Positions 9,958-34,959 of a stretch of DNA of 64,000 nucleotides are shown in pieces. Position 1 is the first letter of the stretch, and every line of letters starts with the position of its first letter. The notes under the pieces are model-generated. The model saw only the letters and a list, made by a program, of their open reading frames with translations, was not told where the DNA came from and searched no databases. The position numbers and the translations under genes are program-made. Source of the DNA: Alphaproteobacteria bacterium (GTDB lineage Bacteria > Pseudomonadota > Alphaproteobacteria > UBA9219 > RFNS01); NCBI GenBank assembly GCA_049653105.1, contig JBASFQ010000017.1, positions 3,304-67,303 of the forward strand, read 5' to 3'.

Positions 9958-10062
9958 AAAAATAGCACATTCTGGAACATGCTGAAATTTCAAAAACCCA
10001 TGAAATCCCTATAAAACAGGCGTTTTGTGTTTCCTCTTGTATCAGGATGTTTCTCCCCGTAA

Positions 10063-14408: not shown

Positions 14409-15955
14409 TGGACAAAGCGGAACAGATTGCCAGACAGGCGGCGCAATTTTCGGAAAATCCCCATAGTCCAGCGGCGTGGCCGGAACCACTGCCACTATTG
14501 GCACAGATAGCACCAGAGCCTTACCCTTTGGATGCCCTGCCCACGACGATGCAAGCGGCGGTCAAGGAAGTGCAAGCCTTCACCAAAACGCCAGTTGCGC
14601 TTGTGGCGGCTTCGGCACTGGGCGCATTGTCGGTTGCGGCGCAGGCCTATGTTGATGTGAAACGCGCTGAAAAACTCTGTGGTTCCGTCGGTGTGTTTCT
14701 GCTGACCATAGCGGATAGCGGTGAACGCAAAACCACCCTTGACGGTTTTTTCACTTCGGCAATTCGTGACTATGAACGCAACCAAGCGTTGTTAGCTAAA
14801 CCCGTGTTGGATAAATACAGGGTGGATATTGATATTTGGGCAACCGAACGCGCCGGGTTGCTGGAGAAAATCAAGCAAGGCATTAAAAAACAAACCGACA
14901 CCAGCGAGCAGAGAACACGGTTGCACACGCTAGAGGCAAGAAAACCGATGCCGCCGCGTGTTCCCCAGTTGTTGCGCGGCGATGATACGCCAGAAAATCT
15001 GGCCTGGGTCTTGGCGCAACAATGGCCTTCGGCTGGGGTAATTTCAAGCGAAGCGGGCATCATCTTCGGCGCACATAGCATGGGGCAAGATTCGATCATG
15101 CGGAATCTGGCCTTGCTGAATATTCTTTGGGATGGCGGTACGTTGTCTATCGGGCGGCGCACTTCCGAATCCTTTACCGTGCAAGGGGCGCGGTTGACGG
15201 TAGGTCTGCAAATTCAGCAAAGCACTTTGCGAAGTTTTTTCAGCCGTTCCGGTGGCTTGCCGCGTGGCACGGGTTTTCTTGCAAGGATGCTGCTGTCATG
15301 GCCTGTATCCACGCAAGGATACCGTCCTTTTACCGAACCACCCGAAGAGTGGCCAGCCTTGGCCGCATTTAACCAGCGCATTGCCGCGATATTGGCAAAT
15401 CCCGCGCCGGTGGATGCAATGGGCGCACTTAGTCCGGCAATACTGACCATGACGCCGGAAGCAAAAGCGGGATGGGTCATTTTCCACGACACCATAGAAC
15501 GCGAACTTAGAAAAGGTGGTGAACTTTACGACGTGCGCGATGTGGCGGCAAAAACCGCCGATAATGCCGCACGACTGGCGGCACTATTTCATGTCCTGGA
15601 ATATGGCTTAGACGGAACTATCGGCACAGAATCTTTCAACGGCGCAAGCCGCATTGCCGCATGGCATTTGAATGAGGCGCGGCGGTTCTTCGGGGAACTC
15701 GCTTTGTCCGAAGCGGCAGCGGATTCAATTCAGCTGAATAACTGGCTGCTGGATTATTGCCACAAAGCTGGCGCGAACAGCGTTTCACGCCGCGAAGTGC
15801 AACAATTTATCACTCCGACGCATTTGCGCGAACGGGAAAAGCTTAACCGGGCTTTGCTGGAATTGACTGAATTAGAACGCATTCGGGAAATCAGCACCGG
15901 AAAGCGAAAGGATATTTTGGTCAATCCCTGCTTACTGAGAAAGGCCAGCCAATGA
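14405..15955 (+). CDS. DUF3987-domain protein (primase-associated, helicase-like replication protein of integrative elements)
   Basis: 516 aa, overlapping the PrimPol stop. The conserved block GSVGVFLLTIADSGERKTTLDGFFTS and the overall architecture resemble YfjI/DUF3987 proteins that follow PrimPol genes. Confidence 0.6.
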   Translation: MMDKAEQIARQAAQFSENPHSPAAWPEPLPLLAQIAPEPYPLDALPTTMQAAVKEVQAFTKTPVALVAASALGALSVAAQAYVDVKRAEKLCGSVGVFLLTIADSGERKTTLDGFFTSAIRDYERNQALLAKPVLDKYRVDIDIWATERAGLLEKIKQGIKKQTDTSEQRTRLHTLEARKPMPPRVPQLLRGDDTPENLAWVLAQQWPSAGVISSEAGIIFGAHSMGQDSIMRNLALLNILWDGGTLSIGRRTSESFTVQGARLTVGLQIQQSTLRSFFSRSGGLPRGTGFLARMLLSWPVSTQGYRPFTEPPEEWPALAAFNQRIAAILANPAPVDAMGALSPAILTMTPEAKAGWVIFHDTIERELRKGGELYDVRDVAAKTADNAARLAALFHVLEYGLDGTIGTESFNGASRIAAWHLNEARRFFGELALSEAAADSIQLNNWLLDYCHKAGANSVSRREVQQFITPTHLREREKLNRALLELTELERIREISTGKRKDILVNPCLLRKASQ

Positions 15956-18718: not shown

Positions 18719-19477
18719 TCATTCTTTGCGATCAGAACAAATAACGAAAGCAATTGCACCAACCACGAGGGTCACGAACAACTGTATGCGAAGCATTTCT
18801 TTATCAACTGCCTCTACAGCCCCTGTTATTGAACTACCGACAACATGGGACGGCGGAAAAAGCAGCATTCCCAACATCACTGCGGCAATGACAATAAGAA
18901 TCTGTCTGCGCTGTTTACCCATGTTTATGCCTATGGGAATTTGCTTTCTGCCCCATTTCTCGATCAACTCGGTCAGGCCATGGTCGGGCGGATCGGGCAG
19001 CGTGACCCTGAACCGGACATAGAAATCCCCGGCGGGGTTCCGGCCATAGGGCGGCAAGCCCTTGCCGCGCAGGCGCAGCAACGTGCCGGTGCTCACGCCC
19101 TTCGGCACCTTTACCATCGTCGTGCCGTCGAGGGTTGACACCTTGATGTTCGCTCCAAGTAGCACCTCGGTCAAACTGACCGTCGCATCAAGGTAAATGT
19201 CGCGGTTGACGCGGGTAAAATGCGGATGCGACGCGACTGCAATTTCAACGATGGCGTCTCCCGCACCATCCAGCCCGGCCAGCCCTTGGCCCTTCAGTCG
19301 TAGCTTGGTGCCGTTTTCGGAGCCAGGAGGGATATTGACATCGAGGGCCTTGCCGGAAGACAGCGTAACGCGCTGCTTGGATCCAAGGCACGACTCGACA
19401 AAACCGACCGCCAGCGCATAGGTCACATCGCCGCCGAAGCCCCCGCGCTTTCTTCTGCCGAACAGCTCGGCGAACAT
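18719..19477 (-). CDS. DnaJ C-terminal-domain (CTD I/II) protein with a C-terminal TM anchor; no J domain
   Basis: G/F-like segment DIFAEMFAELFGRRKRGGFGG, then DnaJ-CTD-like beta repeats (VTYALAVGFVESCLGSKQRVTLSSGKALDVNIPPGSENGTKLRLKGQGL ... YLDATVSLTEVLLGANIKVSTLDGTTMVKVPKGVSTGTLLRLRGKGLP ... GDFYVRFRVTLP), then two hydrophobic helices. The upstream 195 nt overlap the preceding lipoprotein gene in another frame, so there is no room for a J domain. Start placed at an internal ATG. Confidence 0.5.
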   Translation of the reverse strand: MFAELFGRRKRGGFGGDVTYALAVGFVESCLGSKQRVTLSSGKALDVNIPPGSENGTKLRLKGQGLAGLDGAGDAIVEIAVASHPHFTRVNRDIYLDATVSLTEVLLGANIKVSTLDGTTMVKVPKGVSTGTLLRLRGKGLPPYGRNPAGDFYVRFRVTLPDPPDHGLTELIEKWGRKQIPIGINMGKQRRQILIVIAAVMLGMLLFPPSHVVGSSITGAVEAVDKEMLRIQLFVTLVVGAIAFVICSDRKE

Positions 19478-19542
19478 CTCGGCAAAAATATCATGGGTGG
19501 TAGATTCGCCAATCGGATCGCCGTCGCCCTTTGTGCGCCATT

Positions 19543-20178
19543 TCACCGCTTCGCCATTTTCTTGGTTTCCCAATCTCTCAGTCCTTCGCGGATATAAAGG
19601 GCGGTATTCTGAACAATCTCCTGAACGGCGGATTGCCCGGCTTTGGCGACGGCCTCGCCAATGGCGGGACAACTCAGGTGAACTTCGACAGCACCAGAAC
19701 CTTTGCCGATTGGGGAATACTGATAGACCAGTCCGGTTTTGTCGGTGATGGCCAGAGTCGTGGTCAAGACAATATCGCTGTTCGCTGTGGCACTGAACAA
19801 GGCCGGGACAACAACCAGCTTGCTGTCCGCATTGCCTTGATAGATGGTGATCTGAGCGTCATATTTGTTTTTTTGAAGCTGTTCCGGTGACAATGCGCCC
19901 GGCACGAAAGTAATTTTTCCTACCGACTTGGTCAGCACATCACGCATGGCGCTTTCGTAAGGGGCGTTAATGTCGGCATTAAAACTCATGATGGCGCAAT
20001 TCATGCCTTGTGGATCGACTTTCAGTGCCCAGCCGCCAGTTTGTATCGTAGCGGCAAAATTTCCGGGTATAGGGGTTAGCCCGGTCGGGGTTTGCACATT
20101 GACCGGAGGGATGGTCAACCGGCTGGTGCAGCCAGTCAGAATTAGGGCAACGCATAGAATAAGGATGTTGCGTGTCAT
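19543..20178 (-). CDS. Lipoprotein (lipobox LTGC)
   Basis: MTRNILILCVALILTGCTS...; no other motif recognised. Confidence 0.5.
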   Translation of the reverse strand: MTRNILILCVALILTGCTSRLTIPPVNVQTPTGLTPIPGNFAATIQTGGWALKVDPQGMNCAIMSFNADINAPYESAMRDVLTKSVGKITFVPGALSPEQLQKNKYDAQITIYQGNADSKLVVVPALFSATANSDIVLTTTLAITDKTGLVYQYSPIGKGSGAVEVHLSCPAIGEAVAKAGQSAVQEIVQNTALYIREGLRDWETKKMAKR

Positions 20179-21022: not shown

Positions 21023-21484
21023 CTAGCGTATCGACAAGAATATGCCGCTTTTTGCCTTTGATCTTTTTTCCCGCATCAAAGCCGTTCGGGTCAATTTGCG
21101 CCCCCCTTTTTCTGCGCTTTTCACGCTTTGGCTATCAATCACGCAGGCGGTAGGGCTGGCTTCGCGCCCAATCTGTTCGCGACACTGCACATAAAGCGCG
21201 TGATGGATGCGCTCCAGCGTGCCGTCGTAATTCCAGAGATCAAAATAGCGGTGCAGCGTCGTCTTGGATGGAAAATCTTTGGGCACATAGCGCCATTGGC
21301 AACCGGTGCTCAGCACATACATAATGCCGTTGACTACTTCACGCATGTTCACGCGGCGCTTGCCACCACCCGATTTGGCGGGCGGTATGAATGGTGCAAT
21401 ATGCGACCATTCGTCGTCGGTCAGATCACTTGGGTAACGCAGCTTATCCCGGTTGTAGCGCGGGCGGTTTTCTCGTGTCCACAT
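21023..21484 (-). CDS. IS5-family transposase, N-terminal ORF
   Basis: WSHIAPFIPPAKSGGGKRRVNMREVVNGIMYVLSTGCQWRYVPKDFP (DUF4096-type). Confidence 0.75.
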   Translation of the reverse strand: MWTRENRPRYNRDKLRYPSDLTDDEWSHIAPFIPPAKSGGGKRRVNMREVVNGIMYVLSTGCQWRYVPKDFPSKTTLHRYFDLWNYDGTLERIHHALYVQCREQIGREASPTACVIDSQSVKSAEKGGRKLTRTALMREKRSKAKSGIFLSIR

Positions 21485-21565: not shown

Positions 21566-21948
21566 CAGCAAAAGAAACGCGGGAACTGACCGCTGAGGAA
21601 AGAGAATTCAGGAGCAAACGAAAGTTGGTGCAAGAAAAGCTCATCAAGTTTGCTACGCGAATCCCGGCTTTCATGTATCTCACCGACTTCCGTGAAAACA
21701 CTGTGCAGGATGTTATCACAAAGATCGAACCTGATCTATTCCGCACGGTCACAGGCCTTACTGTCCAAGATTTTCACCTGCTGGTAAAACTACGCGTGTT
21801 CAATACCGAGCAGATGAACCAAGCGGTGTTTGCCTTCCGGAGATACGAGGATGCTTCACTAAGATACACAGGCATCGAAAGCCACCAAGGCCTTAGTCAC
21901 TATGGCTTGTACGATACAGTTGTCGCAAAGGAAGCAGTTCGTTACTGA
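21566..21948 (+). CDS. Small hypothetical ORF immediately upstream of the ATPase gene (start uncertain, candidates GTG about 21627 or ATG about 21672); possibly clipped by the IS
   Basis: The frame opens only 45 nt left of the IS and has no ATG before the IS. The C-terminal 100 aa (IPAFMYLTDFRENTVQDVITKIEPDLF...) are unrecognised. Confidence 0.3.
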
Positions 21949-21984
21949 GTGTATGTAGACAGAGCCTGAATTTAAGAGGAAGCG

Positions 21985-24264
21985 ATGCTGAAAAAAATAG
22001 TCACAATTAAGAATGTTGGCCGTTTTCGTAATTCAGCAGCCGCAGGCGTGCCAGAATTTGCAAAGCACAGCTTTATATTCGGTGCAAATGGTCATGGCAA
22101 AACAACAATATGTGCAATCCTCAGATCGGTAAAAACCGGCGAGGCGTCGCATGTTGTCGGCAGGAAGACATTAGGAGTTGCTGATTCCGTAGGCATCGAT
22201 ATCCTAACGAATAGCGGATTGGTCAAATTCAGAGGGGCGGCATGGGATAGTGCCAAACCAGAAATAGCCATCTTCGACAGCAGTTTTGTTTCTGATAACG
22301 TTCATTCTGGCGATATTGTCGATAGCGACCAGAAGAGAAATCTTTATCGCGTCATCATAGGAGAGGTCGGCGTTGCGCTGGCCGTAAAGGAAAAAGCTCT
22401 TGCAGAAGAGAGCCGAACAAAAACAACGGAGATAACGCACTCTGCCGCAGCACTTCAGCCGCATATGGTCGGCATGAAGGCAGATGAGTTCGTAGCGCTT
22501 CGGCAGATCGATGAAATCGACCAGAAGATTGCAGCGCAGGAGAGCACGCTAACCGCCATCAGAGAAGCCGACTCTATCAAGAAGCAGAAGGAGCTGACTA
22601 AAGTTATTATCCCTGACCTTCCGGCCTACTTCGCTGGTCTTATGGCCAAGACAATAGACGACATTGCGAAGGATGCAGAGCAGCAGGTTAGAACACATTT
22701 TGAAGCCCACGGCATGACAACAAAAGACGGCGCGAATTGGGCCGTACAACAGATCGACCACACTGCCGATTCCTGTCCTTTTTGCGGCCAGGATACTAAG
22801 GGCCTTTCTCTGATCGCAGCCTATAAATCTGTCTTCAGTGACCAATATAAGGTGCTGCGCCGCGATATTAAAGTAATGAAGGACGGTATAGACCAGGCTA
22901 TGGGTGAAACGGCCATAGCTAAGCTCGAAACTTTTACCGTGACCCATAAGGCCACACTTGAGTTCTGGACCAAATACTGCCTTCTGAGCCAGACCGACTT
23001 ACAACTTCCCGCTGACTTGGCACAGGCTATCACGGGCATGCACTCAGCTGCCACTGTTCTTATTGAAAGGAAAGCATTAGCTCCATTGGAGGCCATAGCA
23101 ACCGATCAAAGTTTTTTACATGCGCAAGCCGCCTATGAGGCTATTAAAGATAAGGTTATCAACTTCAATCAAGCAGTTGAGACTGCCAACTCTCTTCTTG
23201 TCGCTCAAAAGGCCGCGGCCGGGACGGCCGATCTAGCCGTTGCTACCACGGAGATGAACAGACTGAAAACCAACAAGGCCCGTTTCGACGCCGCTGTAAT
23301 TCCGCTATGCGCAAATTATCAAGCTCTTGTGACCGCCCAAATAGAACTTGAGACACAAAAAAAAGCGATTAGAGATCAGCTAGACCAGCATACGAAAACC
23401 GTTGTCACACCATATCAGAAGCGGATTAATGAACTTCTTGAGAATTTTAATGCAGAATTCTCTATTGCTGAGACAAAACATAGCTATGTCGGAGGCTCCG
23501 CCACATCGACATATAGGCTTGTTATAAATAGAACGCCGATTGATATTGGCGGCGGAAATACGCCGATAGATACACCTAGCTTTAAAAACACTCTAAGTGC
23601 AGGTGACCGCTCGACCCTTGCCTTGGCGTTCTTTTTCGCTCACCTGGAACGCGATCCAGGTCTTACTCAGAAGGTTGTTATCTTTGACGATCCATTTAAT
23701 AGTCAGGATGCCTTCCGCCGTCGGCAAACCATCCTTGAGATTGTCAAACTCGGCAAACAATGTGCGCAGATCATCGTGCTCTCGCATGACCCTACATTTC
23801 TGAAACAGATTTGGGATAAATGCCTTCCGGTAGAGCGCGTCGCGCTTGCGCTTGCCGATCACGGGCAGCAAGGCACCAAAATCATGGCGCATGACCTAGA
23901 ACGGGCGTGCCAGGGAAGGACGGCAACAGAGACAGATGACCTGCAGGCTTTTATGACCCTTGGCACAGGACACCATATTGACATTATTCGCAAAATGCGG
24001 ACTGTCTTGGAAACCTACATGAAGACAACTTATCCAGCGCTTTTTAGTGATACGGATTGGCTAGGAGATATTGTTGGGAAAATACGAGCTGGCGGGGCCA
24101 CATACCCAGCTGTCTGCCTTTATGACGAGCTAGACGCAATCAACGACTACACCAAGCCTTATCATCACGGAGAAAAAATCACGGACAGGACCCCAGATAC
24201 GATTGATTCATCAGAACTGCGTGGCTTCACTAAACGGACATTGCGCATCGTTAACGCGATCTAG
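21985..24264 (+). CDS. AAA_13/RloC-like Rad50-type ATPase: split ABC head with a long coiled-coil insertion and a CxxC zinc hook; possible anticodon-nuclease-like C-terminus
   Basis: Walker A FGANGHGKTTICAIL at the N-terminus. About 400 aa of heptad-rich sequence with a central CPFCGQD. ABC signature/Walker B/H-loop near the C-terminus (LSAGDRSTLALAFFFAHL ... KVVIFDDPFNSQD ... IVLSHD). About 160 aa follow the H-loop. Confidence 0.55.
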   Translation: MLKKIVTIKNVGRFRNSAAAGVPEFAKHSFIFGANGHGKTTICAILRSVKTGEASHVVGRKTLGVADSVGIDILTNSGLVKFRGAAWDSAKPEIAIFDSSFVSDNVHSGDIVDSDQKRNLYRVIIGEVGVALAVKEKALAEESRTKTTEITHSAAALQPHMVGMKADEFVALRQIDEIDQKIAAQESTLTAIREADSIKKQKELTKVIIPDLPAYFAGLMAKTIDDIAKDAEQQVRTHFEAHGMTTKDGANWAVQQIDHTADSCPFCGQDTKGLSLIAAYKSVFSDQYKVLRRDIKVMKDGIDQAMGETAIAKLETFTVTHKATLEFWTKYCLLSQTDLQLPADLAQAITGMHSAATVLIERKALAPLEAIATDQSFLHAQAAYEAIKDKVINFNQAVETANSLLVAQKAAAGTADLAVATTEMNRLKTNKARFDAAVIPLCANYQALVTAQIELETQKKAIRDQLDQHTKTVVTPYQKRINELLENFNAEFSIAETKHSYVGGSATSTYRLVINRTPIDIGGGNTPIDTPSFKNTLSAGDRSTLALAFFFAHLERDPGLTQKVVIFDDPFNSQDAFRRRQTILEIVKLGKQCAQIIVLSHDPTFLKQIWDKCLPVERVALALADHGQQGTKIMAHDLERACQGRTATETDDLQAFMTLGTGHHIDIIRKMRTVLETYMKTTYPALFSDTDWLGDIVGKIRAGGATYPAVCLYDELDAINDYTKPYHHGEKITDRTPDTIDSSELRGFTKRTLRIVNAI

Positions 24265-24382
24265 GCATAAATCGAAATATAGACCTGAGAGAAGAAGGCC
24301 GATGCAAGCTCTTCACAATGAAGCGAGTTAAAGGTTCCCAAGGAGTAGACCCGATACCGAACTCTAGAGTCTGCATGATAGG

Positions 24383-25663
24383 TTGCCTATGCATTTTGCT
24401 TCAGAGGTTAACACAAACGAACTGCGGTGCATTCTCTCGCGGTTTTTATCTATTATTGGCTACATAAAATTAAAGCCACGTTTGGAGCAGATTGAGAAAC
24501 AAGCAAGAAACTCGGAATGGATGCGCTATTCTAAAGAGCGTCTTGGATTAGAGACGGCTCTAATTGAGGTTCTGTCTTACCAGAAATCTACGAATCGTAT
24601 TCTTTGGCCCCCTAGAAATCCAAGCCAGTATCGCTTGTACTCATTTATATCAACTGTTGTAAAAGTTTATAACCGCCTTCCTTCTCCAGCAAAAGTGAGG
24701 CTCACTGGAGAACTAAACAAATGCATTAACCAAGAAGATGGCTTTGGGCCTCTTGCATTTGAAATGAATATGGCAACTCATCTTATGTCGGCAGGATTTG
24801 ACGTCACATTCTCTGATCTTGAAGGACAAGCGCAATTTGATTTACTGGCTTGTAAAGACAATTGTGTTGTTGAGGTCGAATGCAAGTTCGTCTCAGCGGA
24901 TATAGGCCGGAAAATTCATCAGAGAAAATTTCTTCAACTGGCTGAACACCTCAGGCCATCGCTAGAAAATATTATTGAAAAGTCAGACGGGGGTACCTTC
25001 ATAAAAGTAGAACTAGTCGATAGGTTGTCTGCCAGCACGGAAGAGTTTGAACTAATTCGCAACAGTCTAGAAGAGGTTTTAAGAGGACAGGAAACAAATT
25101 CTCTGCGGCTGTCGGTGACAAAAAATAGATTTAACTTTTCTGAAAGCCCGATTGTTTCAGGCACAAGGAACCCTAGAATGCTTTTGGATTTGCAGGAGTA
25201 TGTCGCTAAATATTTTAACGTGAATAACTCGCACATCATGTTGCGGGCAGACATGAGCAGGGCAACTGCCTTACTTTTATCGGTGAGCAGCAAAAAACCC
25301 GATAGGGTCTTAAATAGTATATACGAAAAGCATTTACGTGAATCATCCAGACAATTAACAGGAACGAGAACAGGTATAGCATGCCTCTATTTTGCAGATT
25401 TAAGCGAAGATCAACTCCATGAGGTGGCTGGAACCGAATCCCATCTAATCAATGTCGTAAATCATATCCTAAGAAGAAGACCTAAGATGTATGGCGTTGT
25501 TCTAATGACGAGTGGAACAGTAAGGCAAAAAGACAGTAGGTTGCTATATGTACCGACGGTCACAAATGAAACCGGACCTGCTTACTCTTTTCGCAACCCA
25601 TTCGCTTCACCAGATGAAGCTGCAAGCGACGTATTCAATAAAATATTTGGCACCCATAATTGA
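24383..25663 (+). CDS. Hypothetical protein with a PD-(D/E)xK restriction-endonuclease-like core
   Basis: E(AFEMNMATHL)-x27-D(FDLLA)-x10-EVECK matches the E...D...ExK arrangement. Low GC. 118 nt downstream of the ATPase gene. Confidence 0.45.
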   Translation: MPMHFASEVNTNELRCILSRFLSIIGYIKLKPRLEQIEKQARNSEWMRYSKERLGLETALIEVLSYQKSTNRILWPPRNPSQYRLYSFISTVVKVYNRLPSPAKVRLTGELNKCINQEDGFGPLAFEMNMATHLMSAGFDVTFSDLEGQAQFDLLACKDNCVVEVECKFVSADIGRKIHQRKFLQLAEHLRPSLENIIEKSDGGTFIKVELVDRLSASTEEFELIRNSLEEVLRGQETNSLRLSVTKNRFNFSESPIVSGTRNPRMLLDLQEYVAKYFNVNNSHIMLRADMSRATALLLSVSSKKPDRVLNSIYEKHLRESSRQLTGTRTGIACLYFADLSEDQLHEVAGTESHLINVVNHILRRRPKMYGVVLMTSGTVRQKDSRLLYVPTVTNETGPAYSFRNPFASPDEAASDVFNKIFGTHN

Positions 25664-25722
25664 GTGTATCGCCATCAAAGGCAATAGCCTGAACTTTTAG
25701 AAGGCAGCCGCTGAGGAATAGC

Positions 25723-26706
25723 ATGGGCATCTTATCATTTTTGTTTGGACGTAACAGCCGGAAGTCACCCCATCGCATTGGTCAGAATAGCGCTCATTCG
25801 GTCACTTTTGATGAAAACCTTCTGCACATAGGTTCATTGAACTATTTTGGTTTTTATGAAACTTCTGAAACTGGAGAATGGGTAGTTAGCTGGCTAGATT
25901 CTGATCGTGAAAACCATGTGGGTGGATTTCGTGAACAAGGTCATGGTCGGTTCATATTGTACAATAAAATTGAGGATACAATCATTTTAGATAGCAAATT
26001 TGAGCGGCCAAATCATGGACACGTTGCTAATACTGGATTCTGCACGGTCGAAGATTGGATGTTTGGAAATGGACTAATGGGAACATTCTACGCTCTCTCG
26101 CCAGTAGGCGAAGTAGTAATTGAACGATATTTTGAGGCTAACATTTATAATAGTGCCATTTCGCCTAAAGGTATTCTTGCAGTATGCCAAACCTGTAACG
26201 CTAAGTGCGATGATGGCAATAAGTTGACTGCATTCGAGATCTCATCTGGAAGACAACTATTTTCTGTTACCCCATCAACAGGATGGGCTGATAGATACGA
26301 ATTTGATGAAGACAGTTATCAAATAATCGTTGTTCATGACCGTATAGGTAAATTCAGGTATGACATAAAGGGAACATTTCTCGATACGCAAAAATTCGAT
26401 GCCGACAAACTAATGTCGGATGATTCTGTATCCATTCTTTTAACAGTCGAGCAAAATCTGAAAACAGAGACGTCACAAGAAGAACTTGAATATCTGCTTA
26501 AATCGACTCTCCGTGCAAAATCTTTGCAAGTTAAAGAGCCAAATGGCTGGGATTCCGTCGCGCTTAAACTTGAAGGCATAACCCTTGAAAAATTGGGAAG
26601 AATAGATAAAGCTATTGTTGCTTACCAAGAAGCTCTATCTTTAAATCCTAAAATTGGTGTGGCCAAGCGCCTCTCGACATTGCAGAAGAAATTAAAGGCC
26701 GAATGA
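25723..26706 (+). CDS. Hypothetical protein with a C-terminal TPR-like helix pair
   Basis: 327-aa ORF 59 nt after the previous gene; the C-terminal ...IDKAIVAYQEALSLNPKIGVAKRL is TPR-like. Otherwise unrecognised. Confidence 0.4.
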   Translation: MGILSFLFGRNSRKSPHRIGQNSAHSVTFDENLLHIGSLNYFGFYETSETGEWVVSWLDSDRENHVGGFREQGHGRFILYNKIEDTIILDSKFERPNHGHVANTGFCTVEDWMFGNGLMGTFYALSPVGEVVIERYFEANIYNSAISPKGILAVCQTCNAKCDDGNKLTAFEISSGRQLFSVTPSTGWADRYEFDEDSYQIIVVHDRIGKFRYDIKGTFLDTQKFDADKLMSDDSVSILLTVEQNLKTETSQEELEYLLKSTLRAKSLQVKEPNGWDSVALKLEGITLEKLGRIDKAIVAYQEALSLNPKIGVAKRLSTLQKKLKAE

Positions 26707-26718
26707 TCTTCTTTAAAA

Positions 26719-27927
26719 TTATTTTTGCTTCACTTTTGACGTAAGACCAAGGCGAGACAATAATTCTTCACCGCTGATTGGTTCTTCGTATGGAACATCA
26801 GTCATGTAGAAAGCTGTGCGAGTCAGTATTTCACGTAAGAGTTGTCCATTTGATTCCTGATCTACGGCGATAACATCATCATCTTCCTCTACGCCGTACT
26901 TTTTAAATACTTCATTCGTAATTCGATCAAGTTCACGCTTTCTGCCAGAGCTGAGATAATATTTTATAACTTCTTCTATACGGGACTTAGCCTTCTGCAA
27001 TTGATGGTCGGGTTTTTCTAGCCATTCCGAGTCAATATTTATCTCTTCAGCAATTTGATCTGACCAAACAGACGGGTCAATAGGATTAGAAATCAATCCT
27101 ATTTTCTTGTTGGGTGTGCCGCCGCTCTCTGCGAGAACTACGCACCAGCTAACCATGTTGTACAGTGTGAAGTGACCTACCACTCGACCTGCATCGTTGC
27201 TCGTCACATAAATGAAATTGAACAATGGACCATAATCAGTGCTGAGCTTTTCAGATTGTGGAAGTAGCCGTGAGTCAAGAAAAGACCTATTTCTATTGAA
27301 ATTATCATCACCATTTTTCACAAAATGTCTTACATGGCTATATGGAGGCGATCTCAATTCTTCATTTCCGACTAGTGTGGCCCACAATACCATGCATGAT
27401 TTAGAAATTGAACGAATTGGCTCGGGCCCACCAAATGACAACGGAAAATGGACAGCTCCAAGGTTCTGTGAGACAAACATAGCTTGGCTATTTTGAAGAT
27501 TTTCTATTAGTTTTTCCTCAGTGCATCCTATTTGAGCGGCGATATGAGGCAGAAAACGCTTAATGTCCTCAATATTCTGCACTGTTATTTGAATTTGTGT
27601 ATTACCATCTGCATCTGTTGAAGTTAGAAATGGACGTATATTTAGTTCGGGGCTCCCGTCATTTCGTAGATTGAATTTATCATCCCCGGCTTGAATATTT
27701 TTTATCATTGGGGGTGCCTTGCCTGTCCCCGAATCGAGCTGCAGCATATTCCTTAAAATAGGAACTTGGGCGGTTATTACTTTGTCGATACTATCGCCAA
27801 AGTCGTGGTTGCATTGAGAACAATCGACTTGCGTGGTTGTCTTTCTTCCGCCCAACGCATTTAATAAAATATGTTCTGGTGGTGTGTTGGGGCCTAAGTC
27901 ATTTTCGCAGAAGATGCATTTTATCAT
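26719..27927 (-). CDS. HNH endonuclease-domain protein (HNH_5-type N-terminus; 402 aa with an unassigned C-terminal domain)
   Basis: N-terminus MIKCIFCENDLGPNTPPEHILLNALGG...CSQCNHDFG: CxxC, catalytic His in PEHIL, second CxxCNH. This is the motif arrangement of PtuB-like and Abi-associated HNH nucleases. Confidence 0.65.
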   Translation of the reverse strand: MIKCIFCENDLGPNTPPEHILLNALGGRKTTTQVDCSQCNHDFGDSIDKVITAQVPILRNMLQLDSGTGKAPPMIKNIQAGDDKFNLRNDGSPELNIRPFLTSTDADGNTQIQITVQNIEDIKRFLPHIAAQIGCTEEKLIENLQNSQAMFVSQNLGAVHFPLSFGGPEPIRSISKSCMVLWATLVGNEELRSPPYSHVRHFVKNGDDNFNRNRSFLDSRLLPQSEKLSTDYGPLFNFIYVTSNDAGRVVGHFTLYNMVSWCVVLAESGGTPNKKIGLISNPIDPSVWSDQIAEEINIDSEWLEKPDHQLQKAKSRIEEVIKYYLSSGRKRELDRITNEVFKKYGVEEDDDVIAVDQESNGQLLREILTRTAFYMTDVPYEEPISGEELLSRLGLTSKVKQK

Positions 27928-28086
27928 AATTGACCACTCAAGAATTGCGGGTAACAGCTCCCCAAATAGGTAAAACCACTAGATTTCAGCGGAGTCGGCA
28001 TGAGACCAAGACGCTCAATAAGTAGCCAATAACAGGGGGGTTTGAGTCAATGAGAGGCTTGTGGAAATGTAAGATTGTAGATTAGG
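27845..28086. repeat. Direct repeat copy 1 (about 242 bp): HNH gene 5' end (first about 25 codons) plus its upstream region, ending at the J-domain gene stop
   Basis: About 88% identical to 32646-32899 by eye alignment. Confidence 0.75.
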
Positions 28087-28816
28087 CGCACGATTTAAGT
28101 TTTTTTTCCACAATCTGCTTCTTCAGTTCATCCGCCAATTTGCCAAGAGGATCAAGCCCGTTTGCTTCTTGCTCTTCTATGGTTTTCTTAAGCCGATAGA
28201 TATCAGTTTTTAAAAGTGCTTCCACTTCCTGCTTTATTTCATCGGCTCTGCGCCGCAGTTGTGAATTACGGCGAATGGTCTTAACGATTCGAGAAGCTAC
28301 ATCTTCCCCAACGATTGCCTCAGGGTCCGCGCCGTATTCTTTGATAAGTCTTTCAATTGAAGCCAAATCACCTCTGTGGTAGGCGAGGTTTATCTGGGCC
28401 ATTAGTGACGTGCGCCTTAGACGCTCCTTCTCAGTCAATGCGAGATCAGGATGCATTTGTTTGACCGCGCGCCGGTATGCCTGTTTGAGTATCGGGGTAA
28501 TTTCAGGCTTTGAATTGGGTTGAGGTTCAATCAAGCCAGCTTCTTCAGCCGTTAGTTTTGCACGCTCTTCAGAAGCTTTTGCGTAAGCTCTAACATCGGG
28601 ATCATCGGGTGCCTGTTTTAGGCGTTCATTGGAAATCTTCACCTCTAGCTCATCGAGCTCAGCGTATAGGCGTCCCACTGTGTGAAAATAGCGTTGTTTG
28701 AACCGTTCTGTTTCTGTCGCAGTTGTTTCTAAAGATAGTTCTGCCGACACAAGCTGTTCTTCAAGCTCTTTTTGCTGCGCATCCAGCCGGGCTAGTTCTT
28801 CTTCTTCAGGAAGCAC
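28082..28816 (-). CDS. J-domain (DnaJ-like, HPD motif) protein with flanking coiled-coil segments
   Basis: Central J domain (residues about 105-165): ITPILKQAYRRAVKQMHPDLALTEKERLRRTSLMAQINLAYHRGDLASIERL, with helix II plus the HPD loop. GTG start overlapping the Sel1 gene stop by 11 nt. Confidence 0.65.
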   Translation of the reverse strand: MLPEEEELARLDAQQKELEEQLVSAELSLETTATETERFKQRYFHTVGRLYAELDELEVKISNERLKQAPDDPDVRAYAKASEERAKLTAEEAGLIEPQPNSKPEITPILKQAYRRAVKQMHPDLALTEKERLRRTSLMAQINLAYHRGDLASIERLIKEYGADPEAIVGEDVASRIVKTIRRNSQLRRRADEIKQEVEALLKTDIYRLKKTIEEQEANGLDPLGKLADELKKQIVEKKLKSCA

Positions 28817-30290
28817 TTATAGCCAGCCCTTCTTCAGCAAGTTCGGCATAATCACGAGACGAGAAGGCAATAACTTTCAATGCATTGGTTGCAAGTTGAC
28901 GGGCTTCAGCAATATCAGATGAAGTCATTTTTTTTGCAAGTTCGTCGCGCATCTTTATGGCATCAGCATGAAACTCTCTAATTCCTGGCTTCCCATACGA
29001 ACATGCGACGGCTAACAGAAACCACTTATAGGCTTGCACATAATCCTTCGGCACTCCATTTCCGGACTCATAGATTGCGCCAAGGCCTCTCTGAGAAAAA
29101 TAACATCCTTGATCAGCGGCTTTCAGGTACCACTTTACAGCCTCGGCGTAATTCGGAGAGTCATCGTTGTTGTGTTCATAAAAGTAACCTAGATCGTATT
29201 GGCTTAGCCGCTTGCTACTATCACGGTTCTCATAAGCCATTTTCAGCCAATGGAGGGCGGCAGCCGCATCTTTTCTCAGTCGCTTACCTGACGTGTATTC
29301 ACGAGCGAGCAATCTTTGCGAGTCGAGATTTCCCGCATTTGCGGCTTCTAGTAACATTCGCTCGGCGCGGCCCAAGTCTTGATCTAGGTGGTCGCCAGAG
29401 AGATACAGTGTGGCCAACGAAGAAGTGCCAGAGAATGCGCCAGATTTTTTATCTAACTCGATTTCACGCTCGTACCAAGTGACGGCTGCCTTCTTATCCG
29501 GCGTGATAAGTTGTGAAATTTTGGCTCCATGTGTTTGCTTGTAGCTCGCCGCTGCATTTCCGTACAAACAAAGGTTACCCAGCTGACGGCATGCCCATTT
29601 CCCTCCCAATTTGGCCGCACGAGACAGCCAGAAGATGCCGCGCTCGGTATTGTGTTGTGGATCTTTGTCGTCAAGTAGCCAGGAGCCAAGCACCTCGCAA
29701 GCATGCTCATGATCCTGCTCTGCAGCTGCTATCATCCATCGCATAGCTTCCATAGGATTGTATGGTCTTATTTTTCTTTTCCTATACTGCATAGCATATT
29801 CATATTGATCAGCTGGATCACCTGCCCTTGCTCGTTCCTCGTACCAGGCTAATGCTTGGCGATACAGCAGTGTTTCGTCGTGGTTCGGATTCCCAAGGTG
29901 GTTAGCTACCCTGGTTTCGGAGAGGTTTTCTGCAAGATACAATTGCGCTGGACCAAAGCAGAGTGATGCTGATTTTTCCAACCATTTAACTGCTTCTGGA
30001 TACTCGCTAATCTCTTCGAGGAGCAAGCTCAATTCAAACTGAGCTTCGGTGTGATTTAATTTGGCTGCAGCCAACAAATATGAGCGCGCTTGATCAAAGT
30101 TGGGTGTTTGGCTTTCATCATTTCTGTAGCGCATTCCCATCTTAAAGAGGCTGTCAGCGTCTTGTTTCTCAGGCACAGTAAGGGACTGTTGGATCGCCAC
30201 CAGACCGCGAGTGACGAGGCTAGTCGACTGCGCCTGAGGCAGAGTCGAATTCGTGTGTACCGTTGCTGGGAGTTGCTCGTTTTTGGGCAT
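28806..30290 (-). CDS. Sel1-repeat (TPR-like) protein, 494 aa
   Basis: At least 8 Sel1-like repeats, for example AEAVKWYLKAADQGCYFSQRGLGAIYESGNGVPKDYVQAYKWFLLA and AQFELSLLLEE...AVKWLEKSA. Translationally coupled to the J-domain gene. Confidence 0.7.
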   Translation of the reverse strand: MPKNEQLPATVHTNSTLPQAQSTSLVTRGLVAIQQSLTVPEKQDADSLFKMGMRYRNDESQTPNFDQARSYLLAAAKLNHTEAQFELSLLLEEISEYPEAVKWLEKSASLCFGPAQLYLAENLSETRVANHLGNPNHDETLLYRQALAWYEERARAGDPADQYEYAMQYRKRKIRPYNPMEAMRWMIAAAEQDHEHACEVLGSWLLDDKDPQHNTERGIFWLSRAAKLGGKWACRQLGNLCLYGNAAASYKQTHGAKISQLITPDKKAAVTWYEREIELDKKSGAFSGTSSLATLYLSGDHLDQDLGRAERMLLEAANAGNLDSQRLLAREYTSGKRLRKDAAAALHWLKMAYENRDSSKRLSQYDLGYFYEHNNDDSPNYAEAVKWYLKAADQGCYFSQRGLGAIYESGNGVPKDYVQAYKWFLLAVACSYGKPGIREFHADAIKMRDELAKKMTSSDIAEARQLATNALKVIAFSSRDYAELAEEGLAISAS

Positions 30291-30390
30291 ATGAGAGATG
30301 GACTATTGTTTCTAATTTTTTTGAGCTTAAATCATACATGGAATATAGCGCAACAGGCAATAAAACTATCAACAATGCCATAGCTGTAGC

Positions 30391-31722
30391 TTAGGTAATA
30401 ATACCTTTTAAAAATACCGTGGTGGCTCGCAGGGCATCCTTGAAGAAGGATGCAGCCTCTGGGGTATGAAGCCCCTCCGCTTGACCATATATAAAGTGTA
30501 CGCCGATCTGGAATTGAATGTTCGAATTCTTTTCTTTCAGCAGTTGATAGCAGAAAGTTGTCCATTCTGGTTGTTTCCGAATGGCTGGAATTTTACCATC
30601 AGCTAGACGCCCAACAAGAGTCCTTAAATCAAATGTTAGCGAGCCATCAATTGCGTAGACCTCGCGCATGGTGCGATATCGGCGCTGTTTCATTACAATG
30701 CATGGCTGAAATCCAGCCTTGTTAAGTCCGCGCCGGTCAAGCTCTATAAGAAACGCTTCTATCGACTGTTCAAAGATGCGTACATCGTTGTCTTTTATAA
30801 ATCTCCGCAGTTTTTTAAACTCATCGCTGGCATGGGGGATCGTCAGCATAGCGGTTGCATGCCCGGTGGCGATGCCGATTGTGAAATGGTAGCCGCTAAT
30901 ATGATGATCGTCTTGCCCTAACGGTGACAGATAATCCCAAACTGCGTCGGCAGCCTCAATACTACCACGTCGCCGTGGTTTCTGGTCTTTTGCAAAGCCG
31001 AGATCGGCCAGTAGTTTTTTATCTTCTTCAAGATTATCCACCAAAGCCAACAGATGGCGCTTTGCTTGATTGGGATCATATGCGTGTTCAGAGTTGGGAG
31101 TTTTCTTCGTGCGCGGGTTCTTGAAGGGGATGCCAGTGAAAGTCGTTAGCTTGACTTTGCTGTCCATATCTTTATCTCCTCTTTGCCCTGCAACTATGCC
31201 GAGATAGTCGGCTAGGTCTTTCGACCACTCACAATGCGACTTCAGGTGGTTGGCAATCTCATAGATTCTCGTCCATGCGATGTGTTGCCATGTTTTGTGA
31301 ATAAGGTTCTTTTTCCAGTCCGCAATTTTCTCCGCATCAATTTCGCGGCCAGTAATGGCGTACTTACCGACAATCGCGACACCATAATCTATCGCACGCG
31401 CCTCATGGCGCTGAAGTTGAAGTAGATTAAGACTGGAGCCGACCTTCGCCTCGAAGACAAGCCCACGCCGACCACTGGCATCGACAAGCAAAAGGTCGGG
31501 GATCGCTGTTTCCGCTAAGCCATCACTCGATCGCATGACTACTTGGATCTCGACCCTTACGTCCTTCCCAAGCAGTCGTTTGGCATCACACAAATTTACA
31601 AAAGATTCCATAAACTGCGGGCTGCGCTCAAGAGTAATCGCTAGGGCATGCGTGAGCCTGTTTTCATCACCATCATACTGGTTGAATGGATTGAGCATTT
31701 GCGATCTAACTGCCAAAGGCAA
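30391..31722 (-). CDS. Hypothetical 443-aa protein with an N-terminal PD-(D/E)xK nuclease core
   Basis: ...LTHALAITLER...IPDLLLVDASGRRGLVFEAKVGS... is a classic D-x12-EAK after a Glu-containing helix. The C-terminal 300 aa are unassigned. Confidence 0.5.
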   Translation of the reverse strand: MPLAVRSQMLNPFNQYDGDENRLTHALAITLERSPQFMESFVNLCDAKRLLGKDVRVEIQVVMRSSDGLAETAIPDLLLVDASGRRGLVFEAKVGSSLNLLQLQRHEARAIDYGVAIVGKYAITGREIDAEKIADWKKNLIHKTWQHIAWTRIYEIANHLKSHCEWSKDLADYLGIVAGQRGDKDMDSKVKLTTFTGIPFKNPRTKKTPNSEHAYDPNQAKRHLLALVDNLEEDKKLLADLGFAKDQKPRRRGSIEAADAVWDYLSPLGQDDHHISGYHFTIGIATGHATAMLTIPHASDEFKKLRRFIKDNDVRIFEQSIEAFLIELDRRGLNKAGFQPCIVMKQRRYRTMREVYAIDGSLTFDLRTLVGRLADGKIPAIRKQPEWTTFCYQLLKEKNSNIQFQIGVHFIYGQAEGLHTPEAASFFKDALRATTVFLKGIIT

Positions 31723-31886
31723 ACTAATGATTTTGGATCATTCGCTATCATATAGTAGGTTGCGATAGGACTACAGAGTAGCCCTGATGAGAGGTTAGAA
31801 GATAGTAAGATTAACAGCTCTCCAGCCACCAGAGAATGAGCTCTGACTGGCCAGCTGTATTGTTCGTGTTGATCGGGGAAAATCTT

Positions 31887-32591
31887 ATGCGCCGGTTGCT
31901 CTCTCTGAATATCAGGCATGGTGGGGGCAGTCGCATACCGCGTGTTCTGGAATGGATTGAAGGTCAGCATCCAGATTTGGTTGTTTTGCTTGAATGGAGG
32001 GCCTCTAACGACCAATTACTATCAGTCACCTTGAAGCATAAAGGATTCGAACTTGCCAAGTTTTCAAAAAGTGGGGCTAGGGATAATGGGATAGTCGTTG
32101 CTGCCAAAGACTTCATCCGTGCAGAAAGAATTACACCAAAAGGTGCGGATAAGGGGGAGCTGGTTCTCGTCAGTTTGCATGAGCTAAGCTTATGCGCTGC
32201 CTACTTCCCTCAAGGGAATAATAAGGCAACATATTTCCAAGAGTTATTTGAATTGGCGGTACGTCATACAGACGTGCCATTTTTGGTAGTCGGGGACATA
32301 AACACTGGTAACAATCAGGTGGATTTGCCCAACGGTGCTACCCGATTTGCTTGCTCAAATATGTTTGATGCACTTTCGCGTGAACATGGGATGACCGACC
32401 TGTGGCGGCGGCAACATGGACCTCAAGCGCAGGAATGGACTTGGCATTCAGCCAAAAACGGCTTCCGTATAGACCACGCTTTTGCCAACCATACCTTTCT
32501 GGCTACTTTCCCGCGAGCGAGCTGCTATTATAATCACGACCCAAAGAAACTAAAAATTACAGACCACAGCGCCTTAATCATAGACTTCTAA
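31887..32591 (+). CDS. Endonuclease/exonuclease/phosphatase (EEP, ExoIII-like) family protein
   Basis: MRRLLSLNIRHGGG ... LVVGDINTGNN ... GFRIDHAF ... ITDHSALIIDF. Start probably at the internal ATG (track ORF begins at 31836). Confidence 0.6.
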   Translation: MRRLLSLNIRHGGGSRIPRVLEWIEGQHPDLVVLLEWRASNDQLLSVTLKHKGFELAKFSKSGARDNGIVVAAKDFIRAERITPKGADKGELVLVSLHELSLCAAYFPQGNNKATYFQELFELAVRHTDVPFLVVGDINTGNNQVDLPNGATRFACSNMFDALSREHGMTDLWRRQHGPQAQEWTWHSAKNGFRIDHAFANHTFLATFPRASCYYNHDPKKLKITDHSALIIDF

Positions 32592-32645
32592 TTGAGGTGA
32601 GCTTGATGCCAACATCAGCACGCTCTGTGCGTTTAGTCCCATGTT

Positions 32646-32899
32646 CTTACGCCCAACTCATTTTATAAAATGTGTTCTAGTGGTGTGTTGGAGCCTAAGT
32701 CATTTTAGCAGAAGATGCATTTTATCAGAATTGACCACTCAAGAATTGCGGCGAACTGCTCCCCAAACTGCTCCCCAAATAGGTAAAACCACTAGATTTC
32801 AGCAGAGACGGCATGAGACAAAGATGCTCAAAAAGTAGCCAATAATAAGGGGTTATGGGTCAATTAGAGACTTGTGGAAATGTAAGATTGAAGATTAGG
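32646..32899. repeat. Direct repeat copy 2 (about 254 bp): degenerate HNH 5' end (premature stop) plus upstream region, with an internal 12-bp tandem duplication (AACTGCTCCCCA x2); ends inside a tRNA anticodon loop
   Basis: Aligned by eye with 27845-28086. The reverse complement of 32700-32730 gives ATGCATCTTCTGCTAAAATGA (MHLLLK*), against MIKCIFCEND in copy 1. Confidence 0.75.
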
Positions 32900-32933
32900 A
32901 AACCGATGCTCTATCCAGCTGAGCTACGGGCGC
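32895..32933 (-). tRNA. tRNA 5' fragment (acceptor, D-arm, anticodon 5' stem and loop), tRNA-Arg(CCU)-like, truncated exactly at the anticodon loop
   Basis: Reverse complement GCGCCCGTAGCTCAGCTGGATAGAGCATCGGTTTCCTAA shows acceptor GCGCCCG, D-arm GCTC/GAGC and loop UUCCUAA. The 3' stem, T-arm and CCA are absent; what follows is repeat copy 2. Confidence 0.55.
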
Positions 32934-33009
32934 GCACCAATGAAATCATAGTGTTAGATGGCTTTTGAGGGAAGCAAAATCCGCTTTGCCGCCGAATTTG
33001 CCGCCGAAA

Positions 33010-33384
33010 TTAACTTCGGCGACCGACGACTAGGGTAACCCGCGGCAAATCTGGTCGCTTCTTATACAGTTTCATAAACTCGTGCGTGAGCGATGAAGGC
33101 CAGAGCAGTTTGCCGTCATATCGGGCGCAAACAAGTGTCTCTGAGGTATGCACTATATTCAGACGGGCTAACCTTTCGGTCTGAAGCTCCTTATGGCGGC
33201 GAAGCTCTTCAACGGCATACTCAGGCAGTAAGATTGCACGGGTTCTATTTGTTTTTGGCGATTTGAAACGCGTTCCGGCTTTGGTTTGCTCAATACTCTC
33301 CACGACACGTATTGTCTTGTTGTCGAAATCTACATTCTTCCAGCGCAAAGCGACGATTTCACCACGGCGCATACCCGTAGCCAT
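33010..33384 (-). pseudogene. Tyrosine integrase internal fragment (about 120 aa of the catalytic domain; lacks the N-terminal domain and the HxxR/Tyr C-terminus)
   Basis: MATGMRRGEIVALRWKNVDFDNKTIRVV...TRAILLPEYAVEELRRH is a box-I/Arg region only. Confidence 0.6.
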
Positions 33385-33674
33385 TGGCTAATTGGAGACC
33401 AACGTTGGGGGGGATCGCTTCACTCCGATATATGGATGGGTACTGCGGCGCAGCTAGCTGCCTGTGGACTAATAGCCGTGTAGCCGCGCAGTGGCTCTAT
33501 GATTATAACCATGTGCGGCCACATAGCAGCCTGAACTATCTGACCCCGATGCAGTTCATTCAGCAGCAAGAGGCTGGCGGCTTCGGACTCGTGGCGGTCA
33601 CGCCGCCAGCCTCTTGCCGCCCCCAACCGCTGGCGCTAGATTACCCAAAGACTCTACATCCCCGTGGTACATAA
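33384..33674 (+). pseudogene. DDE transposase C-terminal remnant (IS3/IS481-type integrase-core end)
   Basis: ...AAQWLYDYNHVRPHSSLNYLTPMQFIQQ is a characteristic transposase C-terminus; the upstream catalytic part is absent. Confidence 0.5.
33568..33617. repeat. Perfect 14-bp inverted repeat (CAAGAGGCTGGCGG / CCGCCAGCCTCTTG) with a 22-nt loop; strong hairpin at the end of the transposase remnant
   Basis: Read directly at 33568-33581 and 33604-33617. Confidence 0.6.
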
Positions 33675-33805: not shown

Positions 33806-34696
33806 ATGGTATTTACCATTTTTTTCTCCGGAAGGATCGCAGTTCTGCCTTCCGGGAAACAGAAAAGGCTAGCAGAGGGCGCAAATACCAGGATCGCGCC
33901 TCTCCCTGTTACAGACACGCTTCATTTTAGCTATTTTTTTGTATCTTCATTCAATTTTACTGGACAAAATCGACTTTGCGGTGTTATTTCACGGAACATG
34001 GTTGACCGGGAACAATTCGCTTCCTCAGTAGATAAAGTTGTTGAAGAGGCCATTTCGGCAATCAGCAAACGGTCGGTCGTTCCCCCTCCCGGACAAACTG
34101 CCAAGCAACAGCAAGAGACGCATACGAGCTGTTGGAAAGATTATGCCGAAGCCCTGACTAAAAGGAAAAGAGAGCTGGACGAGCAAGACCAGATCGTTGC
34201 GACGTATTTCAAGGATCCGGGGTTCAATACCAATACATGGCGTATGATAGCGTGGGTCGATACCGAGCAACTCCAAAAAGACATCGTACAGACGCCTCCC
34301 CTATCCGCTGATCATGGGTTAGAGGCCATGCCGATGCAGCATCGGAATGGCGGCCATTTTTCTGTCAAACACGGTGAAATCGCCTTTAATGACGAAACTG
34401 CCAGCCGCAGCTTTGAACTCCTGGATACGAGCATGCAGCATGTCAAGAATGCATGGAACGGCACACGGATTCAGCTCACCGGGGATCAACAATTTAAAGA
34501 TATCAGTTGGGCCTTGGCACAAAAACATGGGATCAAGGTTGAAGGTTTCATGCCCGACAGCGCCGTCAAGATGACGGAAAAAGAGCGCAAGGATCTGGCG
34601 GAGCGCATGATCGCCGATTATCAGAAAAACAAACAGGAACCGAAGCGCCCCGAGTTCCTTTCTTGGCCAACACTAAATGAAAAGCTGGCAGCCTGA
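33806..34696 (+). CDS. Hypothetical protein (true start possibly about 33998, MVDREQF...); C-terminal region weakly reminiscent of relaxase-associated LPD7-like domains
   Basis: ORF only; GC is lower than the core. The LPD7 resemblance (IQLTGDQQFKDISWALAQKHGIKVEG) is weak. Confidence 0.3.
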   Translation: MVFTIFFSGRIAVLPSGKQKRLAEGANTRIAPLPVTDTLHFSYFFVSSFNFTGQNRLCGVISRNMVDREQFASSVDKVVEEAISAISKRSVVPPPGQTAKQQQETHTSCWKDYAEALTKRKRELDEQDQIVATYFKDPGFNTNTWRMIAWVDTEQLQKDIVQTPPLSADHGLEAMPMQHRNGGHFSVKHGEIAFNDETASRSFELLDTSMQHVKNAWNGTRIQLTGDQQFKDISWALAQKHGIKVEGFMPDSAVKMTEKERKDLAERMIADYQKNKQEPKRPEFLSWPTLNEKLAA

Positions 34697-34740: not shown

Positions 34741-34959
34741 TCAGAAGTCTTTCCCAAGCGCCGCAACAAGAAGAAACAGCGCCACGGCAACCCCTTGCAA
34801 GATAAGGCGGGCACGCATCAGACGATTACCGTATTTCTTATTAAACTCCCCGCCTTTGGCCATGGAAAACACGCCCAGCCCAAGCACGGCAACAACAGCC
34901 GCCAGTGCGGTAAACATACAAATGGTAATAAAGACAGGCATGAGGGTATTGTAGGCCAT
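34741..34959 (-). CDS. Small two-TM membrane protein (DUF2909/HIG1-like)
   Basis: 72 aa with two hydrophobic helices and a central KGGEFNKKYGNRLMRARL. Confidence 0.4.
   Translation of the reverse strand: MAYNTLMPVFITICMFTALAAVVAVLGLGVFSMAKGGEFNKKYGNRLMRARLILQGVAVALFLLVAALGKDF

Follow-up and report, generated by a model that had tools for sequence, protein, structure and literature searches.

Direct repeats at a truncated tRNA-Arg(CCU) gene in an alphaproteobacterial genome: probable remains of two sister integrative elements in series

The 64,000-nt stretch of an alphaproteobacterial metagenome-assembled genome (MAG) analysed here (contig JBASFQ010000017.1; hereafter the window, whose numbering all coordinates follow) contains two direct copies of a sequence of ~250 bp, R1 and R2, which bracket a 4.6-kb block of four genes. 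R2 in turn adjoins the 5' half of a tRNA-Arg(CCU) gene, cut in the anticodon loop. Structures of this kind are known: the locus is a tandem array, now decayed, of elements that target tRNA genes and that belong to the rarer type in which the 5' half of the target gene is replaced. In the reading that we consider probable, two sister integrative elements stand serially at the tRNA-Arg(CCU) gene, the tRNA-proximal one surviving as the 4.6-kb block. The anatomy of the locus, a breakpoint that recurs in other genomes, and a motif common to the attachment arms of several loci are directly visible and are presented first, followed by the history that they suggest and by the alternatives to it.

The repeats are read on the minus strand and lie 4.8 kb apart. 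R1 (27843-28086, 244 nt, minus strand) comprises a CCTAA(TC) core, an element-side (P') arm of ~150 nt, and the first 85 nt of an intact HNH gene; R2 (32644-32899, 256 nt, minus strand) has the same layout, with the HNH remnant occupying 32644-32728. Direct repeats of about this length had been predicted by eye from the sequence, and the BLASTN comparison proposed as a check on them found a similarity neither much shorter nor much weaker than it had appeared (E = 6e-78; 22 mismatches, with 222 of 244 aligned bases the same). A global alignment yielded 24 mismatches in 244 aligned positions and a single 12-nt indel, such that identity amounts to 90-91% on aligned bases and to 86% when gap columns are included. 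The longest exact run common to the two copies is 34 nt, followed by runs of 23, 20, and 20 nt. The right edges are sharp, as GATTAGG (CCTAATC on the minus strand) closes R1 and R2 alike, and to the left a weaker similarity possibly continues for ~20 nt more. No third copy was found within the window, and a scan of the repeats for promoters and terminators gave nothing above chance.

Divergence between the copies is spread evenly over coding and non-coding positions. R1 leads from where a J-domain-like gene stops (stop codon, 28082-28084) across 159 non-coding nt to codons 1-28 of the HNH gene, and the substitutions that distinguish it from R2 number 16 in the 159 non-coding and 8 in the 85 coding positions. 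Seven of the eight coding substitutions alter or terminate the protein in the HNH stub of R2, which together with the even spread indicates that the stub has evolved without constraint. Read in the correct HNH frame, R2 has CTG in place of the ATG and stops at codons 8 and 22; the HNH 5' end was therefore rightly called dead by the original prediction, but the MHLLLK-stop mini-ORF that it took for the remnant is out of frame, its counterpart in R1 being MHLLRK-stop. As a side observation, the substitutions comprise 15 transversions and 9 transitions, a transversion-rich spectrum that is unusual for neutral drift.

The tRNA-Arg(CCU) 5' half that adjoins R2 (32895-32933, minus strand; GCGCCCGTAGCTCAGCTGGATAGAGCATCGGTTTCCTAA) covers positions 1-38 of the gene and ends with the anticodon-loop bases CCTAA. 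It was identified by direct comparison, as half tRNAs escape Rfam and ARAGORN, neither of which called this one. The half matches, base for base (39/39), the opening 38 positions of the intact tRNA-Arg(CCU) gene of 21 genomes, so that an anticodon loop of a truncated tRNA-Arg, which R2 had been predicted to meet, is indeed there and can be assigned exactly. In a scan of one genome per species the 39-mer was present at 25 loci. At 21 of these it runs on into a normal tRNA-Arg(CCU), ACCGGRGGTC...CGGGCGCACCA, and ARAGORN names the intact gene in L027 and L044. At L013, L024, and L028, all of them in alphaproteobacterial MAGs, the tRNA is broken directly after CCTAA, as in the window, and unrelated DNA lies beyond; the genome with the broken copy L028 also carries an intact copy, L027. 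A breakpoint that is identical to the base in independent genomes is the signature of site-specific crossing-over within the anticodon loop, and the same-base breaks in these three genomes and the window mark an anticodon-centred attachment (att) site, at which a displaced tRNA fragment terminates the island. The earlier proposal of an HNH-led element at an anticodon-loop att site of this tRNA gains support from the same breaks. In both R1 and R2 the HNH gene is the first gene behind the arm. The HNH gene was also considered as a general marker of tRNA-adjacent elements and rejected in that role, as its homologues at three loci lie in defence islands or in an integrative and conjugative element (ICE) with no tRNA nearby.

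The arms on either side of this breakpoint carry short tandem motifs that we regard as putative arm-type integrase sites. In the P' arm of R2 a pair of such sites, two copies of TTTGGGGAGCAG (32756-32779, minus strand), is located at +115 and +127 from the end of the core. At locus L044, an integrase gene ends 5 nt before two copies of TTTGGGGAGCAG at -114 and -102, and an intact tRNA-Arg(CCU) lies 52 nt past the pair; the L044 and R2 pairs are identical at 27/27 bases, one flanking base per side included. R1 has a lone site, TTTGGGGAGCTG (27955-27966, minus strand), its second site having gone with a 12-nt deletion. That R1 lost a site, rather than R2 having gained one by the 12-bp internal tandem duplication originally described, follows from the identical pair at mirror offset in L044 beside a related integrase gene: paired sites are the normal state. 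Upstream of the tRNA half, the P arm block (32934-33009, minus strand) is 91% identical to the region upstream of the intact tRNA in L031 and carries a pair of its own, two copies of TTCGGCGGCAAA (32985-33008, minus strand) at -114 and -102.

Tandem sites of 11-12 nt with the form TTYGGNNGCAA, at -114/-102 or at +113 to +139, were found at nine alphaproteobacterial loci, window included. On the upstream arm, tandem TTYGGNNGCAA-like pairs stand at -114/-102 in the window, L027, and L031, and looser or single sites are seen in L013, L017, L024, L028, and L032; L018 has its own tandem pair at -117. Downstream-arm sites at +113 to +139 are present in R2, L028, L024, and L013, and L024 has an additional site at +41. 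The sequences of the sites, drawn from L013, L017, L018, L024, L027, L028, L031, L032, L044, and positions 32756-33008 of the window, fall into classes (TTCGGTAGCAA, TTCGGCGGCAA, TTTGGGGAGCAG, and TTGGGGGGCAAA) that are spread over genomes and over either arm at fixed offsets. A given site sequence thus need not keep to one arm, being upstream in one genome and downstream in a second: L027 and L024 have TTCGGTAGCAA in common, and the window's upstream arm shares TTCGGCGGCAA with L013. The motif was not found in ten non-alphaproteobacterial loci, and most other alphaproteobacterial loci also lack it. L013 and L044 were considered as the two ends of one element type, a pairing that was rejected.

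Attachment sites of the heterobivalent, lambda-type integrases carry arm-type sites, and the arrangement seen here is alike in that each arm has short direct-repeat sites ~100-130 nt away from the core, constant in their spacing from it and shared with an integrase locus. It is unlike the lambda arrangement in that the motif is unrelated to lambda's, that protein binding to the sites is presumed from their placement, and that core-type sites cannot be defined, since the bases after CCTAA vary between loci. Because the two arms that meet at the tRNA half carry different site sequences, the junction is a hybrid of the arms of two elements. Repeated integrations would leave such a hybrid, as every new element brings its own upstream arm.

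Directly behind the P arm block lies the only integrase gene by the tRNA-Arg half, a tyrosine integrase pseudogene fragment of 124 aa (33010-33384, minus strand) that is devoid of its N-terminal part and of its catalytic C-terminal part and belongs to the neighbouring remnant. It is cut off by the C-terminal fragment of an insertion sequence (IS) transposase (rve_3; 33384-33674, plus strand). The fragment is 62% identical to residues 207-322 of the full, 395-aa integrase of L027, whose gene is situated upstream of an intact tRNA-Arg(CCU) on the same strand, and the L044 integrase is a 71% relative of the L027 enzyme. The family is large, with 4763 relatives at E <= 1e-40; a second close homologue, at L046, has no tRNA alongside. 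No integrase gene is found from R2 to R1, nor behind R1 until ~21 kb, and the intact integrase gene at 10113-11402 goes with a tRNA-Glu fragment described below. A free attachment site in a virus was also sought and rejected: the integrase search of viral contigs gave a single distant match, and the viral matches to the tRNA half were complete phage-borne tRNA genes.

At the other end of the block, the J gene meets R1 within a CCTAA pentamer (28082-28086, minus strand) that includes the J stop codon. The J protein is full length, and its 687 relatives, of 244-255 aa, align with it end to end; the relatives end in ...KAYA-stop (gcctga) or ...KAFP-stop (ccctaa), and the protein here ends in ...KSCA-stop (gcctaa). 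Since the protein is complete and the genes of its relatives end alike, CCTAA belongs to the J gene itself. The crossover at the joint therefore fell within five bases that the two partners had in common beforehand. The CCTAATC heptamer previously noticed at the close of R1 is accordingly present but does not signify a second tRNA site. The joint would have arisen at a secondary crossover site, for which the end of the J gene (GCGCCTAA) is a candidate, or by microhomology or a short deletion. Three routes can be envisaged. A second element may have integrated at the J-end secondary site, in a nested integration; an integrase may have made an aberrant deletion from the J-end site to the next core; or slippage between two CCTAA copies may have deleted the integrase-side arm and tRNA copy of the first element.

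From these features we infer the following order of events. The family of the elements would be mobilised by a tyrosine integrase encoded just upstream of a copied promoter region and 5' half of the tRNA gene; one side of the attachment site would be made up of the integrase gene together with a short arm and these copied tRNA sequences. Each repeat would represent the other, element-side half: the CCTAA core, a P' arm of ~150 nt with putative arm sites, and the start of the HNH gene. Put differently, R would be the core, P' arm, and first gene of an element whose integrase shares the arm specificity of the L044 enzyme. Integration would swap out the 5' half of the host tRNA gene, the old half ending up at the far end of the element. 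In the window, the tRNA-proximal element would have been reduced to R2, the dead HNH stub, and its cargo of EEP, 443-aa, Sel1, and J genes, and a second element, ~10% diverged from the first, would begin at R1 with its HNH gene intact. R1 and R2 thus would stand for elements in series, each with its attachment arm.

Several observations weigh against this reconstruction. A clean tandem array is expected to have a tRNA 5' half at the inner joint as well; the J-R1 joint has none, and an extra event is required to account for it. The members of an array would each be expected to possess an integrase and a tRNA fragment of their own, and the window has one tRNA-Arg fragment, no integrase paired to a TTTGGGGAGC-type arm, and no integrase-side arm with TTTGGGGAGC sites anywhere else. 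Neither an intact tRNA-Arg(CCU), such as marks the other end of islands in the Islander survey, nor a tRNA 3' half is present in the window, including the 32.9 kb downstream, and the far end of the array lies outside it. Immediately after CCTAA, the element-side arm differs from locus to locus in its first bases, and binding of an integrase to the tandem motifs is deduced from sequence. Searches of plasmid records (with R1), phages, JGI metagenomes, and viral contigs also disclosed no second example of arm R.

The original prediction had the block inserted or recombined between two copies of a single att-proximal sequence, with the repeats still serving as a cassette exchange point. The ~10% divergence of the copies, their one versus two arm sites, and the differing G+C contents (0.475 in the block and 0.44 in the HNH-side cargo) suit sister elements at least equally well. 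An exchangeable cassette would be recognised by alternative alleles, and none came to light. R1 had no match among plasmid records, a phage search with the R2 region matched the tRNA half only, and exact 20-23-mers of the repeats were absent from JGI metagenomes and viral contigs. Exact-protein look-ups of HNH and Sel1 recovered only contigs from the same sample, with the same joints, breaking inside the repeats. These searches returned no block-less allele, no other block between the repeats, no other copy of the repeat, and no free circular form, and we found no evidence of ongoing cassette exchange. Homologous deletion between the two copies of R is possible but should be inefficient, given 90% identity and exact runs of at most 34 nt. 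Slim odds attach to the further idea that the 4.8-kb unit of core, arm, and block can still be mobilised, via the core or CCTAA-like secondary sites, by an integrase of the P0242 type encoded elsewhere; were it so, sister elements would swap att-proximal defence cargo as cassettes.

Of the remaining explanations, the one closest to the sister-element reading starts from a resident HNH-led element at the tRNA half, into which a circular 4.8-kb mini-element (core, an R-like arm with a truncated HNH gene, EEP, 443-aa, Sel1, and J) entered through integrase action at the core or a single homologous crossover in R, thereby duplicating R. Such an insertion predicts exactly the observed order of tRNA half, R2, block, R1, and HNH gene, and the block, with its own G+C content and no integrase, resembles a deletion derivative mobilised in trans. 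Yet the circle would need a ready-made J-CCTAA-R joint, which merely shifts the unexplained step to an earlier time, the ~10% divergence and the arm-site difference imply that the incoming arm derived from a diverged sister element regardless, and no free or alternative form of the mini-element was found. We consider this course of events unlikely; it overlaps with the favoured one, since the two share the same map and differ in the order of events only. Alternatively, slippage or unequal exchange could have duplicated the HNH promoter region locally, and the match to CCTAA would then be a coincidence. This segmental duplication derives some plausibility from the four occurrences of CCTAATC over both strands of the window, a heptamer that is not rare. 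It would leave to chance, however, that the edge of the repeat falls to the base on the breakpoint seen in three other genomes and that the paired arm sites of a related integrase recur in the repeat at the offset to be expected, and the copies are, moreover, ~10% diverged; we regard it as very improbable. Hardly any weight is given to an assembly artefact in which two strain variants of the metagenome were chained via the shared 34-nt run. The source is a MAG, and an independent Logan assembly of run SRR28011564 gave contigs 100% identical to window positions 21692-27986 and 27961-32784 that end within this same run, common to R1 and R2, such that at k=31 the pairing of the flanks is ambiguous. 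Against this, the EEP-R2 and J-R1 joints are both on a single Logan contig at 100% identity, and the submitted contig passes through both copies; ordinary reads can distinguish R1 from R2, because 24 positions differ.

The sister-element reading places the locus among the tDNA islands catalogued by Islander, with which it shares the involvement of a tyrosine integrase family, a crossover in the anticodon loop, a left-over 5' fragment, and a replacement 5' half with its upstream region; unlike them, the window has no intact tRNA and no working integrase at this site, preserving one attachment junction and decayed remnants. In the Islander survey, a 5' tRNA fragment was recorded for 159 of 3919 islands, a minority configuration, and 2083 islands were anticodon-centred and 125 tandem arrays were listed (Hudson, Lau and Williams 2015, PMC4383910). 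As in such arrays, related elements stand in series here, the same arm type comes first in each, and the inner junction is composed of arms from different elements; as a difference, the J-R1 joint is without a tRNA copy and integrase-side arm, and the proximal member is without an integrase. Accretion of ICEs with cis-mobilisable elements at one site, known from Streptococcus thermophilus, offers a parallel with the same likenesses and differences. For phages of Pelagibacter, experiments placed the attachment site just downstream of the integrase gene and showed it to include a 5' tRNA segment, and HTVC120P, a podophage of the HTVC019P type, uses tRNA-Arg (Zhao et al., bioRxiv 10.1101/410191). 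The tRNA half of the window has a 39-nt match that adjoins a pelagiphage integrase gene in the same orientation. The HTVC019P-type integrase is only remotely related, over one stretch of 54 residues at 39% identity, and the elements in the window carry defence-type and mobilisation cargo in place of a phage genome.

The locus leaves current understanding of island integration as it is. It shows how defence-type cargo (HNH, Sel1-J, and nuclease-like genes) accumulates and degenerates at a single tRNA hotspot, and it documents 5'-half-swapping elements with a readable attachment site, consisting of an anticodon-loop core and paired arm sites ~100-130 nt off. Given how common this integrase family is in metagenomes, such islands could be mapped automatically with the help of the arm-site motif and its constant offsets.

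The four genes of the block comprise, from R2 to R1, an endonuclease/exonuclease/phosphatase (EEP)-family gene (31836-32591, plus strand) that ends 52 nt before R2, a gene for a 443-aa protein (30391-31722, minus strand), a Sel1-repeat gene (494 aa; 28806-30290, minus strand), and the full-length J-domain-like gene (244 aa; 28082-28816, minus strand), which overlaps the Sel1 gene and whose stop codon lies in the CCTAA joint. The 443-aa protein has no family match, and sequence searches with PADLOC, PHROGs, and the PDB all came back empty; the PD-(D/E)xK label that it had been given stands insofar as a PD...ExK motif (IPDLLLVD...FEAK) is visible, but no profile confirms it. Sel1 and J form a conserved overlapping pair (Sel1 of ~500 aa and J of 244-254 aa in the window at 28082-30290, in L035, and in L038) that conjugative or mobilisable elements carry as cargo at their ends. 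In L035 (3695-5933) the pair follows a SIR2_2 gene and adjoins a tRNA-Gly; in L038 (6491-8735) it lies between relaxase genes and ArdC. The gene upstream of the pair varies, being SIR2_2 in L035 and the 443-aa PD...ExK-like protein in the window. The pair has no PADLOC match and may constitute an undescribed defence-type module.

Behind R1, the intact HNH_5 gene (402 aa; 26719-27927, minus strand) is the first gene, and the HNH-side cargo behind it consists of genes for an AAA_13 ATPase, a 426-aa protein, and a tetratricopeptide-repeat (TPR) protein (21985-26706, plus strand). The ATPase (759 aa; 21985-24264) matches the PADLOC candidate family PDC-S06 (E = 4e-64), and downstream of it come the 426-aa protein, which has no family match, and then the TPR protein of 327 aa.

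Other mobile-element remains flank the array on both sides. Beyond the tRNA half, a gene for an LPD7-domain protein (33806-34696), of a type usual on conjugative elements, lies 45 nt from the first core gene, and core genes, with a G+C content of 0.57, resume with a twin transmembrane helix protein (34741-34959) followed by tsaD at 34983; the position of the LPD7 gene beside core genes implies that the stretch from the tRNA half to the core genes is also mobile-element debris. On the other side, an IS5-type DUF4096 fragment at ~21 kb (21023-21484), where one Logan contig also ends, may mark the join of the tRNA-Arg array with a second island. This second island, of a satellite-like kind, is defined by a tRNA-Glu(UUC) 3' fragment (9912-9959, minus strand; 94% identical over 50 nt to the annotated E. 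coli tRNA-Glu), beside which stand the intact integrase gene (10113-11402), a Prim-Pol gene (13518-14408), and a DUF3987 gene (14405-15955). As the window has no intact tRNA-Glu, the other end of this island is missing or rearranged. Further to the left, the window carries a complete rve-type transposase gene (5804-6787). The accessory cargo of its left half also includes a DnaJ C-terminal-domain gene (18719-19672), flanked by ORFs without a family match, and a gene for an Imm42 immunity protein (8246-8839).

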